Source of the DNA: a virus
IMG/VR virus record: IMGVR_UViG_3300007072_000007
Coordinates: 10,245-74,244 of that record
Strand: one strand, 5' to 3'
DNA: 64,000 nt
Positions 1,365-61,632 of this stretch are shown piece by piece (the first letter of the stretch is position 1; each line of letters begins with the position of its first letter). The notes beneath the pieces are model-generated. The model had not been told where the DNA came from. It saw only the letters and a program-made list of their open reading frames with translations, and made no database searches. The translations under genes were made by a program, and so were the position numbers.

Positions 1365-1407
1365 CCGTGAAAACGGGTACTTTTACAGCGCGTAAAAGGA
1401 GTCAGTT

Positions 1408-2955
1408 ATGAGCGACCTCGTGCTTGTCAATGACGGTGCTTACCAGTCCATGATGGAGACTGGCTTGCGTCTGGCCTCTCTACCCGAAAGCGAAGGGGGC
1501 TGGGCGGAATACTTCGATGAGGATGCGGGCCTCGGAATCAAGGACGATTTCACGCGGGCCTGCACCGCCATCCTTCTGGAGAACAACAAGCGGTGGCAGG
1601 CGAAACTCTGCCGGGGCCGGATTGTCGAGGGGCGCATCGTGGTCAACGAGGCGGTCCGGTCGGCCCTGCTCGGCGGGTACACCGACTACCTGCTGCCGAT
1701 GGTCCGCGCCGCCTTCCCGACCAACGCCATCAATGACCTGGTGGCCGTGCAGCCGACCCTCAAACGGGTCGCAACCTGCATGTATTGGAACTACTCCTAC
1801 GGGACGACGAAGGGCAGCATCTCCGCTGGCCAGCGGATTTTCGACGCGACCAGCGGCGTCCAGTTCCCTGCGTCGCAGACCAATCAGTTCCCCCGCCACT
1901 ACTCCGGCGAGTACGTCGATGGCGAGACGACCGGCACGGTGTCCAGCAGCGGCACGAACACCAACGATGTCATGTCCGGTACGCTCGCGTGGGTCGGCGG
2001 TGGCGTCCGGCCCGGATCGGTTCGCCTGACATGGGCCGGAACCGGGACTGTAACCATCACGGCGGTCGATAACGGCAACGGCTCGTTCGTCGTTTACAAG
2101 GACGCGGCCACCAACGCCGTTTCGTCGTCCTCCATCAACTACGCGACCGGCGCGTTCTCCATCGTCGGCGGGACCAACGGCGTAACCGCCGCTGGCACGT
2201 CCACCACGGCGACTGCGTACTACCGCTTCAACAGCGAGGGGACGCGGATGCCGCGCATCGACATCACGCTGACGACCTCGACGGTGGAGACGGAGAGGCG
2301 AGCGCTGGAACTCAACTACCCCATCGAAGCGGCGCAGGACGTGTCCGCCGAGTGGGGTCAGCCGCTCGAACCGCAACTGCTTGCCGCCGGAGCGGAACTG
2401 CTCAATCTGGAGGTCGCGGCGCAGATCATCGCCGAGATGTGGGCCGTCGCGCCGACCTTCGGTTCGTTCGACACGACCATCCCTGACGGGATTTCGCTCG
2501 AACAGCACTTCCGCTCCATCATGTACCTGCTCAACGGGGCTTCCAGCGACATCTGGGACCGGACGCAGAAGGGCTACGGGTCATGGATTATCGTGGACAC
2601 GCTCGCGGGCAACGTCATCAAGAGCCTGCCGCGCGACCTGTTCGAGAAGGCTCCGACCCCGGCCAGCGTCAACGGTCTGCATTTCATCGGAATCCTCGGC
2701 GGGCAGTTCCGCGTGTATCTCTACAAGGGCTTGCGCCATGAACCGGGTGCGTCGGCTCTTGGGAATATCCTGATGGGATGGAAGGGAAGCGGGATTCAGG
2801 ATGCCGGTTTGGTGTACATGCCGTACCAGGTGTTCTACACCACCGATACCCTGACCGACGCTTCGTTCACCAGCCAGAAGGGTCTGGCGACGCGGTATGC
2901 GACGAAGTTGGTCAACCCCAACTTCTACGCGAAAATCACGCTGACCTCGACCTGA
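1408..2955 (+). CDS. Major capsid protein (T4 gp23-like)
   Basis: AILLENNKR, LPMVRAAFP..NDLVAVQP, GLVYMPY and KGLATRYATKLVNPNFY motifs; SD AAGGAG; followed by a terminator. Confidence 0.93.
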   Translation: MSDLVLVNDGAYQSMMETGLRLASLPESEGGWAEYFDEDAGLGIKDDFTRACTAILLENNKRWQAKLCRGRIVEGRIVVNEAVRSALLGGYTDYLLPMVRAAFPTNAINDLVAVQPTLKRVATCMYWNYSYGTTKGSISAGQRIFDATSGVQFPASQTNQFPRHYSGEYVDGETTGTVSSSGTNTNDVMSGTLAWVGGGVRPGSVRLTWAGTGTVTITAVDNGNGSFVVYKDAATNAVSSSSINYATGAFSIVGGTNGVTAAGTSTTATAYYRFNSEGTRMPRIDITLTTSTVETERRALELNYPIEAAQDVSAEWGQPLEPQLLAAGAELLNLEVAAQIIAEMWAVAPTFGSFDTTIPDGISLEQHFRSIMYLLNGASSDIWDRTQKGYGSWIIVDTLAGNVIKSLPRDLFEKAPTPASVNGLHFIGILGGQFRVYLYKGLRHEPGASALGNILMGWKGSGIQDAGLVYMPYQVFYTTDTLTDASFTSQKGLATRYATKLVNPNFYAKITLTST

Positions 2956-2980
2956 TTCTGGTTTGCAGGCAGACACCCGA

Positions 2981-3012
2981 CGGGGCCGGGCGAAAGCCCT
3001 GCCCCGTTTTTT
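2981..3012 (+). terminator. Intrinsic terminator after capsid gene
   Basis: CGGGGCCGGGC-GAAA-GCCCTGCCCCG stem followed by TTTTTT. Confidence 0.8.
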
Positions 3013-3026
3013 CTTTGGAGGACACG

Positions 3027-3566
3027 ATGCCCGAATCCGAACCCGTGTTCATCAACGGTCAACTCCGTCCCGTCATGGTTCCGTGTCAGGACGGGCGCAT
3101 GCGTCTGGTCCTGCCGTTCGCGGAGAAGGGGTCCGGTTCTCCCTACGGCGGGGTGTACGAGTTGAGCGGGGAATACTACCGGCGGTTCGTCGCCAGCGGA
3201 CTTCTGGTGGAGAAGCCCGCTGGCGGTTCCTTTCGTTCTGCGCCTGTTGATGTTTCCGTTCCGCCGGTGGTTTCGCAGGAGGAGAACGACGACGATTCCG
3301 CAGCCGATGCTACCGATGCCCAGGAAGAAAACCCGTCCGAGCAGGTCCAGCCCGCCATCCCGCCCGAAGTCATCAGCGACCTGATGGACATGGTGGAGGG
3401 CATGAGGTCGCCTCCGTCGGAGGATGATGTGGCGGCGATGCTGCGGTACGTCCTCGCGGTCCGTTCCGGCGAGCGGGCGGAGGCGGATTCGGAGTGGTCG
3501 AAGGGGACGCTCAACCGTCTGGATGAGATTGCGAACGGACGCTACAAGCGGAAAACGCGGAGGTGA
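3027..3566 (+). CDS. Hypothetical protein (acidic, head region)
   Basis: SD GGAGG before ATG 3027; the upstream part of the tracked ORF overlaps the capsid gene and terminator. Confidence 0.7.
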   Translation: MPESEPVFINGQLRPVMVPCQDGRMRLVLPFAEKGSGSPYGGVYELSGEYYRRFVASGLLVEKPAGGSFRSAPVDVSVPPVVSQEENDDDSAADATDAQEENPSEQVQPAIPPEVISDLMDMVEGMRSPPSEDDVAAMLRYVLAVRSGERAEADSEWSKGTLNRLDEIANGRYKRKTRR

Positions 3567-3569
3567 TTC

Positions 3570-4313
3570 GTGCCTTCGACGCTGACCGTCGCATCGGTTT
3601 ACGAGCACGTCCGGTCCATGCTCGGCGAGCCGGTCGTCGATGTCGAAGTCCTGGAGTCGCATTATGAGGCCGCGCTGCGGCAGGCGGTGCGGGTTTACAA
3701 CCGCTACCTTCCGCGCGAGGCGGTCGCGCCCCTGACGGTTTCGTCGGCGGTGAAGAAGTACCTCGTTTCGCATGTGAACCTGCTTGGCGTGACCGACGTG
3801 CAGTTCGTCCGCGACGTGCCTGTGACCGGCTCGGTGGACCCCTTCACCTACTGGCGGCGCAGCGACCAGTTCGTGGGCGGCATGTCGTTCGGGGAACTCG
3901 ACCAGCAGTTTCACTCCGCCGAGGACGCCAGCCGCATCCTGTCGGTGGACCCGGACTGGAAGGGCCAGTGGGAGCAGGACGGGTCGTACTATCTCTACAT
4001 CTCCGTCCCCGAAGGGCGGACGTTCCTCTGCTCCTACACCTACTTGTGGGCCGTGTCGCCCGACGACACCGCCGGTACGGGCCTGTCGGCCATCCCCGAA
4101 ACGGATACGGACTGGCTTCTCGACTTCACGACGGCGCGCGTGAAACAGGTGTTGGGGCGCGTCCTGCGGAAGCACGGCGGAGTTCCCATGCCGGACGGCG
4201 GTTCCGAATCTACGGACGGTTCGGACCTGTCTCAGGAGGGCCGTGAGGACGAGCAACGGCTGACGGACGAGATTCGCCGCCGTTCACGGCGGCCCCTGCT
4301 GGATGTCGGATGA
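3570..4313 (+). CDS. Neck / head-completion protein (T4 gp13-like)
   Basis: LGEPVVDVEV N-terminus; WLLDFTTARVKQVLGRVLRK and DGSDLSQEG C-terminal pattern; position after capsid. Confidence 0.8.
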   Translation: MPSTLTVASVYEHVRSMLGEPVVDVEVLESHYEAALRQAVRVYNRYLPREAVAPLTVSSAVKKYLVSHVNLLGVTDVQFVRDVPVTGSVDPFTYWRRSDQFVGGMSFGELDQQFHSAEDASRILSVDPDWKGQWEQDGSYYLYISVPEGRTFLCSYTYLWAVSPDDTAGTGLSAIPETDTDWLLDFTTARVKQVLGRVLRKHGGVPMPDGGSESTDGSDLSQEGREDEQRLTDEIRRRSRRPLLDVG

Positions 4314-60739: not shown

Positions 60740-60796
60740 GGTACAATGCGCATGTTGTGGTGCGATCCAGTGTACGGGCGGTGGAAAAGGTGGTTT

Positions 60797-61312
60797 ATGG
60801 ACGAAGGTGCGCGTCAATCGTCGGGCGGAGTCGTACGGTTGCAGTCGTGGGTGACGATCCTGGTCGGTCTGGTAGCGATTGCGTCGTTCATCGGTCAGAT
60901 GTTCGTCGGTCATTACCGCATCAATGCCGTGGAGACGGCGCAGACGGCGCAGGAGGCGAAGGCCACTCTGGTCGAGGGGCGCGTCGGCGAACTGGAGAAG
61001 TTCAACCGGGTTATGGAGGTGTTGCGAAACTCTTTCGAGTCTCTACAGCGGGCGGTGGAGAATCACATCGCCAACAGCGACCTGCATCAGACGCCTGAGC
61101 AGAAGAAGGCGATGACGGCGATGCAACTACAGCCCATCCTGCTGCAACTCAACACGCTGGAAGTGCAGATGCGGGAGCGGGATCGACAGGTTGACAAACT
61201 GCTGGCGATGGTGGAGACGCTGGTGCAGGAAACCCGAAGTTTGAGGGTGCAAGTCGAGTCGTTCAAGGTAGGTCGTGGCGTCGGGCCGCTCGCCCCGCCC
61301 GACCCGAAGTAA
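60797..61312 (+). CDS. Membrane-anchored coiled-coil protein; start uncertain
   Basis: TM WVTILVGLVAIASFIG followed by heptad-rich region. Confidence 0.65.
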   Translation: MDEGARQSSGGVVRLQSWVTILVGLVAIASFIGQMFVGHYRINAVETAQTAQEAKATLVEGRVGELEKFNRVMEVLRNSFESLQRAVENHIANSDLHQTPEQKKAMTAMQLQPILLQLNTLEVQMRERDRQVDKLLAMVETLVQETRSLRVQVESFKVGRGVGPLAPPDPK

Positions 61313-61352
61313 CGTGCCTCATTGAGTGATGGCGGGTGGGCAAAGGAGAGAA

Positions 61353-61549
61353 CGATGACCTACGTGATGCACGACGGATTGCTCTGGCGGTCCGAGGACA
61401 GCCAACGGTGGGAGCGGTACGCGGGCGACGGACGATGGGTTGACGGCGACGCGCCGCAACGTCTGGAGGTCGTGGATGAGGAAAAGGCGAACGCCTACCA
61501 ACGCGATTTCGACCTAGTGCTTGACGGCGATTCCCTGATGACCGGATGA
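61353..61549 (+). CDS. Small hypothetical protein
   Basis: SD AAGGAG before ATG near 61354; followed by terminator. Confidence 0.55.
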
Positions 61550-61574
61550 TGCTCTCATACCCCCCTCCCGCTAC

Positions 61575-61608
61575 CCCGCCGGGTGCTCGCATCCGGCGGG
61601 TCTTTTTT
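61575..61608 (+). terminator. Intrinsic terminator overlapping a palindrome variant
   Basis: CCCGCCGGGTGC-TC-GCATCCGGCGGG then TCTTTTTT; the T run begins TTTTTCGCAGCGTAAAT (61604-61620). Confidence 0.75.
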
Positions 61609-61632
61609 CGCAGCGTAAATCCGTGTTTACCC

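Follow-up and report, generated by a model that had tools for sequence, protein, structure and literature searches.

Which protein reads a 17-bp palindrome that recurs along a phage genome, and for what purpose? The question is raised by a 64,000-nucleotide (nt) stretch of DNA, here called the window (bases 10245-74244 of the 74,244-bp IMG/VR virus record IMGVR_UViG_3300007072_000007), in which an odd palindrome is dispersed and a ParB-family protein is encoded at 38210. A sequence-only reading had proposed that this ParB loads at the palindromes so as to organise, partition or silence the phage genome. The palindromes are interpreted here as docking or loading sites for the phage's own ParB, which has no ParA partner; we infer this binding and give it a probability of about 0.6. 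The loading part of the earlier proposal is retained: the palindromes are phage-specific, the ParB is canonical and ParA-less, and both occur together in a family of related phages. The partition part is not: classical partition is unlikely. Positions are those of the window unless given as contig positions. Related contigs are cited by their handles (G or L numbers).

The palindrome and its copies

The perfect palindrome, ATTTACGCWGCGTAAAT, is found 12 times in the window and 14 times in the whole 74-kb contig, the two extra copies being a pair located 1.9 kb upstream of the window. No perfect copy was found in 100 dinucleotide-preserving shuffles, and the reversed control pattern has 0 copies in the whole contig. 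The copies and variants described in the sequence-only reading were all recovered: the 12 perfect ones at their exact coordinates, the five variants with the mismatches listed below, and the half-site reported at 34830 as a perfect right half. Its statement that sites recur between 19 and 62 kb also stands, the inter-site gaps measured being 1.5-5.8 kb; in this phage, the palindrome recurs roughly once per 4 kb. Allowing up to three mismatches to ATTTACGCWGCGTAAAT gives 16 copies in the window; further variant copies are located upstream of it (contig 2164 and contig 5416). Paired sites are 27-28 and 45-49 bp apart, and their helical phase is not constant. Sites are listed without strand, except the site at parB. 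ORF, open reading frame; aa, amino acids.

1381-1397: weak variant TTTTACAGCGCGTAAAA, 5 mismatches; between the protease and major head genes; inner sequence as at 44961.
7209-7225: perfect palindrome; first of a pair 27 bp apart; intergenic, 10 nt past the stop at 7199.
7236-7252: perfect palindrome; second member of the pair.
19407-19423: perfect palindrome; intergenic; begins 8 nt past the stop at 19399.
23569-23585: perfect palindrome; overlaps the TGA stop of the 824-aa helicase.
27691-27801: three perfect palindromes (27691, 27740 and 27785) upstream of the DnaB-like helicase, inside direct repeats of 35-43 nt; copy 27691 falls in the final codons of ORF 26838-27740, whose stop is overlapped by copy 27740.
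32878-32894: variant, 2 mismatches; within the DNA polymerase ORF, read YLRDVN.
34832-34840: right half-site A-GCGTAAAT; its TAA is the DNA polymerase stop; 16 nt before a TTGACA-17-TAGTAT promoter.
36653-36669: perfect palindrome; directly past the stop of the SSB-like gene, then a hairpin.
38154-38170, + strand: variant palindrome ATTATCGCAGCGTAAAT, 2 mismatches; overlaps the -10 and start region of the parB promoter.
41911-41927: perfect palindrome; within the 5'-3' exonuclease ORF, read HLRSVN; stretch not conserved in relatives.
44961-44977: variant, 3 mismatches; within the SbcC-like ORF.
49059-49075: perfect palindrome; within the C-terminal tail of the large terminase ORF, read DLRSVN.
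54866-54882: perfect palindrome; 4 nt past a stop, upstream of ORF 54909-56615.
59208-59224: perfect palindrome; within the 1373-aa ORF, read DLRSVN.
61604-61620: variant, 2 mismatches; intergenic; 12 nt upstream of promoter-like TTTACA-17-TAACAT.

The repeats around the triple cluster (27685-27845) comprise two identical 35-nt units and 43-nt units at 60-81% identity. They are followed by promoter-like TTGACT-16-TACTGT. This region could be an origin or a centromere-like cluster.

The 17-mer is absent from all other IMG/VR contigs, and its 15-bp core gives only single chance matches in this database. In 185,579 prokaryote species genomes, the exact 17-mer is found as 33 scattered single copies in unrelated taxa, never more than one per genome. 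Thus, no prokaryote genome uses it repeatedly, which argues against a host regulon site.

A site probably read on DNA

Intergenic copies overlap the upstream stop codon or begin 0-10 nt past it (7209, 19407, 23569, 27740, 36653 and 54866), as the sequence-only reading had noted. The intergenic gaps that carry sites are just 19-99 nt long, so any site there is necessarily near a stop. About 35-45% of sites lie inside ORFs, versus 83-93% of DNA that is coding (this contig and relatives): the sites are strongly enriched between genes, yet not confined there. The six intragenic copies (27691, 32878, 41911, 44961, 49059 and 59208) are all in one reading frame. The encoded hexapeptide is (D/H/Y)LRSVN, except in the two variants, where it is YLRDVN or YLQRVN. 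The A-centre is always on the coding strand; a T-centre would encode Cys. The copies compared with relatives (exonuclease and terminase) fall in protein stretches that the relatives do not conserve. This use of one frame in non-conserved stretches points to selection on DNA, not on protein.

The flanks of the sites are not conserved, and no -10 element is found at a fixed distance from them. Promoter-like sequence adjoins 5 of 13 intergenic site loci versus 15% of site-free gene junctions; some sites are thus promoter-proximal and others are not. As RNA, the palindrome gives a stem of 7-8 bp (about -7 kcal/mol, z-scores -1.2 to -2.7) with no U tract, and one copy is unused in its own best RNA fold. 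In G002, a complete related genome, asymmetric variants of the site are found in both orientations relative to genes (24 versus 15). A generic promoter or terminator was rejected on the lack of a conserved flank and of a U tract.

Site spacing is more regular than a random arrangement would give, with a gap coefficient of variation of 0.48-0.62 (1 expected) and P<=0.001 in the large relatives G001-G003 and P of about 0.02 in this contig. The result stands under a null that places 60% of sites at gene junctions. The largest inter-site gaps in the relatives are 4-8 kb. Such even tiling suggests a coverage function. Overall, the sites look like phage-specific, DNA-level binding sites for a dimeric protein, as judged from their sequence and placement.

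The ParB gene and protein

The gene at 38210 was assigned to the ParB family in the sequence-only reading, and profile matches bear this out: ParB_N (PF02195) is found with 68 bits (cut-off 26.3; E 7.7e-19) and HTH_ParB (PF17762) with 24.1 bits (cut-off 22.6). The gene and its signals are as follows.

38104-38170, + strand: parB promoter-operator region; -35 TTGACA at 38130-38135 and -10 TATTAT at 38153-38158; half-sites ATTTACG at 38104-38110 and CGTAAAT at 38139-38145 bracket the -35.
38210-39283, + strand: orphan ParB, 357 aa; N-terminal domain with the motifs for cytidine triphosphate (CTP), ParB helix-turn-helix, clade-specific helical C-terminal domain and acidic tail.
39294-39320, + strand: strong hairpin resembling an intrinsic terminator, 10 pairs followed by T-rich sequence; end of the one-gene parB unit.

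The sigma-70 promoter TTGACA-17-TATTAT has 11 of 12 matches. With its own predicted promoter and its own terminator, parB is a one-gene transcription unit.

The nucleotide-binding motifs align with those of Spo0J. In the clade alignment, GERRxRA (GERRYRA) and EN..R are invariant (G75, E76, R77, R78, R80, A81, E111 and N112). The nearest solved sequences are Spo0J (4e-18), Caulobacter ParB and Noc (5e-15) and, more distantly, KorB (4e-6). An AlphaFold model (predicted local distance difference test, pLDDT, 78.6) shows an N-terminal domain, a helix-turn-helix domain, a disordered linker and a three-helix C-terminal domain. Its best Foldseek matches are ParB-CTPgS (7bnr), Noc (7nfu), KorB-KorA-DNA (8qa9) and ParB-parS. 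Residues 37-216 match ParB-parS 6t1f with a template modelling (TM) score of 0.72; the TM score against KorB 8qa9 is 0.71. ORF 38210-39283 is thus, by motif and model, a canonical ParB with CTP motifs, helix-turn-helix and ParB/Noc/KorB fold, and a predicted CTP clamp. Among about 50 ORFs scanned, it has the sole DNA-binding domain above threshold.

The two ends of the protein are particular. The model gives residues 1-11 a pLDDT of 29 and no helical structure. The N-terminal sequence SLGKRK departs from the ParA-contact motif LG[KR]GL (defined in PMC12704722). The three-helix C-terminal domain (241-336) is found in this clade only and is modelled at pLDDT 72-89; searched alone against 1.8 billion representatives, it gives 5 other weak matches, which is uninformative on clade size. 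The ParBs of relatives carry Lys/Ala/Pro-rich N-terminal tails of 40-70 residues, similar to histone H1. The ParB of this phage has no such tail and differs further by 9 extra residues within its C-terminal domain and by an acidic tail.

A phage family with ParB and without ParA

An IMG/VR scan with the single ParB protein as query found nothing, and a metagenome scan found only distant ParBs outside the clade. Relatives were found in IMG/VR with the ParB clade alignment as query, and a terminase-based scan added members. They share the order polymerase, SSB-like, RecA, ParB, exonuclease, SbcD, SbcC, terminase, portal, with 30-50% aa identity; by this synteny, L005-L012 are true relatives. G001 is 143 kb long (98% complete) and G002 is 150 kb long, with terminal repeats (100% complete). 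The contig studied here (CheckV completeness 53%) would therefore be about half of a roughly 140-kb phage genome.

All family contigs that span the RecA-exonuclease interval encode this ParB. The sequence-only reading had found no ParA in the window; a search for ParA (PF13614, PF01656) in the whole contig and in G001 and G002, both complete or nearly so, likewise gave none. No tyrosine integrase and no serine recombinase/resolvase were found in the family contigs searched. ParB is thus an orphan core gene of an uncultured phage family without sign of lysogeny.

Drift of the operator across the family

The motif of this phage is itself absent from the relatives. The word TGACAYNRTGTCA is found there in 30 (G001), 55 (G002) and 42 (G003) copies versus 0-2 for controls, and is the most over-represented word in each of these genomes. 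The half-sites and centres are as follows.

This contig: half-site ATTTACGC, centre W; 14 perfect copies in 74 kb.
G002: ATTGACAY, centre S; 55 copies.
G003, L009, L252: TTGACAC, centre N; 42 copies in G003.
G001: TRACAC, centre W; 30 copies.
L006: TTACAC, centre W; 2 copies.
G008: ATTAAACG, centre W; 9 copies in 31 kb.
G006: TGGACSC, centre W; 5 copies in 74 kb.
G007: GTGACAR, centre N; about 6-10 copies in 59 kb.

When aligned by their centres, the half-sites ATTTACGC (this contig) and ATTGACAC (G002) are identical at 6 of 8 positions. In sequence, the half-sites of the relatives are clearly homologous and are variants of the same odd palindrome. G005 gives only a weak TGAC-N5-GTCA signal. 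A homologous operator across the family suggests a conserved binder, and the use of centre-aligned variants by the relatives suggests that ParB and site drifted together. Co-occurrence of the motif with this ParB clade had been proposed as a check in the sequence-only reading. Homologous palindromes tile every larger relative with ParB; the exact motif is absent from the relatives, and two ParB-encoding fragments, G004 and G009, carry no such palindromes. G004 (L005) encodes two tandem ParB paralogues (373 and 323 aa; 8792-10942) and has no dispersed palindrome in its 22 kb.

Evidence linking ParB to the palindromes

Between the RecA and ParB genes, six genomes (this contig, G001, G002, G003, L009 and L252) have a site over the parB promoter, despite their differing motifs. 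Other site positions are also shared: the 3' end of the 824-aa helicase gene (here and in relatives), the SSB-RecA gap (here, G002 and G003) and the region upstream of ORF 54909 (here and at the homologous gene in G001). At the terminase-portal boundary, the site of G002 is at the junction and that of this contig is in the terminase C-terminal tail.

In the helix-turn-helix, the residue after VRR is Cys in 6 of 6 ParBs from genomes with a ..ACAC core and is Ala, Ser, Tyr or Val in 9 of 9 other ParBs. The Cys-less lineages are placed in three clades on the ParB tree. This column (A156 in the ParB of this phage) aligns with T179 of Caulobacter ParB, one of the four positions (173, 179, 184 and 201) that reprogram ParB to Noc specificity (PMC7383237). 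The tracking of motif class by the T179-equivalent residue is suggestive. A simple recognition-helix code was tried and rejected, helices varying among genomes with one motif.

Proposed mechanism and points against it

ParB dimers would bind each palindrome through the helix-turn-helix. The next step, clamp and slide, is borrowed from the biochemistry of ParB, Noc and KorB (PMC11790492, PMC13768133): on taking up CTP, the dimer would close as a clamp and move along the adjoining DNA. At one site per 3-5 kb, loading would extend over the entire chromosome of roughly 140 kb. Since a weakened site copy overlaps the parB promoter, ParB most likely represses its own synthesis from it. The preferred purpose, by analogy, would be KorB-like marking and transcriptional damping of phage DNA, not partition: the lack of ParA and integrase and the tiling, not clustering, of the sites make classical partition unlikely.

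A broader proposal falls a little short of an even bet. The phage family would coat its chromosome with its own ParA-less ParB-CTP clamp from an even lattice (a site every 2-5 kb, even in coding linkers). This would be a virus-encoded chromatin or marking system (silencing, insulation from host factors, or DNA organisation in replication/packaging). The protein and its operator would have undergone several specificity switches through helix-turn-helix positions including the T179 equivalent, and the family would then hold a natural series of such switches.

Several observations weigh against binding by ParB. The contig is about half of the genome, and other regulators may lie in the remainder; two weak helix-turn-helix ORFs and many proteins without assigned function are also possible binders. 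Most sites are intergenic and 5 of 13 intergenic loci lie beside promoter-like sequences, which an ordinary repressor also fits. The known ParB C-terminal dimerisation domain (PF23552) was not detected in the profile scan. The tree behind the Cys correlation has weak support and yields just three independent contrasts, not enough to reach significance, and position 179 in ParB/Noc is a permissive backbone contact, not a base reader (PMC7383237). Recognition helices differ widely among ParBs of the TGACAC-motif genomes (HDRDVRR, HVSKIRR, NIGKVRR, HPMKVRR), so there is no clean read-out code. Lastly, no dispersed palindrome was found in the ParB-encoding fragments G004 (22 kb) and G009 (31 kb), and G006 has just 5 sites in 74 kb.

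Other explanations

Another dimeric regulator of the phage could bind the palindromes as dispersed operators, also control the parB promoter and act as a repressor or roadblock at gene junctions, much as phage repressors do at their operators; ParB would in that case have another function. Candidates are a 74-aa Cro/CI-like ORF (contig 1908-2132), a helix-turn-helix ORF (62208-62759) or a conserved protein of unassigned fold. A 17-bp odd palindrome has the typical size of a Cro/CI-type operator. Most sites are intergenic despite a genome that is about 93% coding, and the excess of promoter-like sequence at site loci (5 of 13 versus 15% of site-free junctions) fits this explanation. In addition, a variant site lies 32 nt past the stop of the 74-aa HTH_3-like ORF, HTH_3 matches are also found in G001 and G002, and many ORFs have no Pfam match. 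However, both helix-turn-helix matches are under the Pfam cut-offs (18.8 versus 23 bits and 21.7 versus 24.6 bits), and neither ORF has a detectable homologue in G001-G003, though the operator is homologous family-wide. The 35-45% of sites within genes, the lack of a fixed site-promoter relation, the even tiling and the inconstant helical phase of the pair spacings (27-28 and 45-49 bp) also count against such a regulator, which we consider doubtful.

Much less probable is a host global regulator or nucleoid protein that is exploited by the phage, the motif differing as hosts differ. The differences in motif between related phages would agree with it, but the 33 prokaryotic copies are chance-like and none is repeated, and identity at all 17 positions in 14 copies is unusual for host regulon sites. 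It is equally improbable that the palindromes have no dedicated binder and act as RNA hairpins (processing, pausing, termination) or as DNA structures or hot spots for RecA, SbcCD or exonuclease. Many copies just past stop codons, recombination genes flanking parB and the 7-8 bp stem that the RNA can form are in line with such a role. Against it, the stems are weak by energy and z-score, have no U tract and are bypassed in one best fold; the 13-bp versions of the relatives could pair over 5-6 bp only, and no Rfam family matches. The occurrence of asymmetric variants in both orientations relative to transcription does not fit it either, and both the copies in ORFs and the strict identity of the loop and outer bases suggest that a protein reads the site. 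Two other links were tried and rejected. The ParBs of the ParB-dependent thymine dioxygenases (PMC13229309) have no DNA-binding domain, and no dioxygenase is encoded beside this parB. As a candidate binder, the neighbouring N6/N4 methyltransferase fails by its absence at this locus in G001-G003.

Gene setting and other observations

The contig has 63% G+C and is about 93% coding; the + strand carries essentially all genes. GenBank phages give no megablast match, and the nearest phage isolates have aa identities of <=32% (terminase) and <=30% (polymerase). The sole sequencing run containing contig DNA is a sediment metagenome, probably the source sample; no RNA run is listed. Rfam and tRNA scans gave no match. 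The gene order of the window is as follows.

Start: prohead protease, major head protein, tail genes.
Next: two helicases, DnaB, primase, family A DNA polymerase.
Next: SSB-like protein, RecA/UvsX, ParB.
Next: N6/N4 methyltransferase, Dda helicase, 5'-3' exonuclease.
End: SbcD, SbcC, PDDEXK nuclease, large terminase, portal.

In the 1373-aa multidomain ORF (56618-60739), the C-terminal domain (1155-1300) resembles zeta-toxin/AAA_33 kinases, and residues 668-787 weakly resemble S-adenosylmethionine lyase; homologues in G001 match parts of the ORF only. An FkbM-type methyltransferase (24074-24745) and a TSCPD-domain protein (24749-25102) are encoded between two helicase genes and have no homologue in the three large relatives.

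Other repeats are found in related contigs. G007 (L336-L338; minus strand, 187-41856) carries ten directional promoters, TTGACA-N16-17 with an extended -10 TGTGTA(A/G/T)AAT, all on the gene strand; this repeat class is distinct from the palindromes. L255 (13901-17549) carries seven leaders, CCAACCGCCCAGAA-GGGCAGGACAA-AAAATG, directly before the start codons of small genes, which look like a repeated ribosome-binding or 5'-UTR (untranslated region) cassette. A tandem AGTGA pentamer array of at least 10 units is found in the related 74-kb contig G006 (L335; about 65967-66010).

Comparison with known systems

ParB-type CTP clamps are regarded as chromosome and plasmid segregation proteins, with a few regulatory offshoots (KorB, Noc, VirB and BisD). 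The nearest working analogue of the system described here is KorB with its operator OB; the nearest by sequence are chromosomal ParB and Noc.

KorB of the IncP-1 plasmid RK2 is likewise a ParB-family CTP protein with a dozen or more identical, dispersed odd palindromes (PMC11790492, PMC13768133, PMC13584720). The OB core is TTTAGC-G-GCTAAA versus TTTACGC-W-GCGTAAA here. In both systems, some sites adjoin promoters and others are far from any. Unlike the phage protein, KorB partitions its plasmid with a ParA (IncC) and has clamp-locking partners (KorA, TrbA), for which the weak 74-aa helix-turn-helix ORF would be a guess only. The phage family also differs in having no signs of lysogeny and, in the large relatives, 30-55 evenly tiled sites per genome.

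Noc of Bacillus is a ParB paralogue without ParA, whose dispersed palindromic sites (Noc-binding sites, NBS) cover DNA (PMC7383237, PMC8429893). A few helix-turn-helix positions, 179 among them, account for its divergence in specificity from parS, and its structure 7nfu is a close fold match. Noc regulates the division site of its host and carries a membrane-targeting helix at the N-terminus; the setting here is a phage chromosome, and residues 1-11 of the phage protein are modelled as unstructured. The outer ATTT...AAAT arms of the palindrome resemble NBS.

With classical ParABS systems (chromosomal, P1, N15), the phage system has in common its protein family, CTP motifs and helix-turn-helix recognition of an inverted repeat. 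In contrast, the phage has no ParA and no LG[KR]GL motif, and its sites are tiled, not clustered as in a centromere, with one triple cluster (27691-27801).

Many near-identical repressor sites dispersed in short intergenic gaps are also found as the stoperators of Cluster A mycobacteriophages (discussed in PMC4351075). The sites described here differ in being palindromic, in the good share that is intragenic, in the two orientations of their variants and in the lack of any lysogeny genes found. Stoperators are located near stop/start codons, are asymmetric and oriented with transcription, and are bound by the immunity repressor of temperate phages.

The Cluster O mycobacteriophage Corndog has 34 copies of a 17-bp dyad-symmetric repeat, many intergenic and some intragenic (PMC4351075). 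Like the present family, Corndog is not obviously temperate and has no integrase and no parAB, but an orphan ParB-like protein (PMC4351075). The authors predicted a dimeric binder with a role other than transcription initiation, and did not link the repeats to the ParB-like protein (PMC4351075). The repeat was confirmed here, with 11 copies in 14 kb around gp90. It is unrelated to the palindrome (TGTTCGG-NNN-CCGAACA) and belongs to an unrelated phage; gp90 matches ParB_N only marginally (27.7 bits) and lacks a ParB helix-turn-helix.

Significance

In the literature, no account was found of a phage with a lattice of ParB sites. The new elements are a family-wide orphan ParB, centre-aligned palindrome variants, even spacing, a site at the parB promoter and a tracking residue equivalent to T179. 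A 2025 survey reported many orphan phage ParBs and assigned no role to them (PMC12704722), and the dispersed 17-bp repeats of Cluster O have been without explanation since 2015 (PMC4351075). If ParB binds the sites described here, orphan phage ParBs would have a concrete substrate, and the family would supply five or more naturally occurring operators, each with its matching protein, for the study of how ParB specificity evolves. The phage would then be a virus that tiles its own genome with clamp-loading sites.

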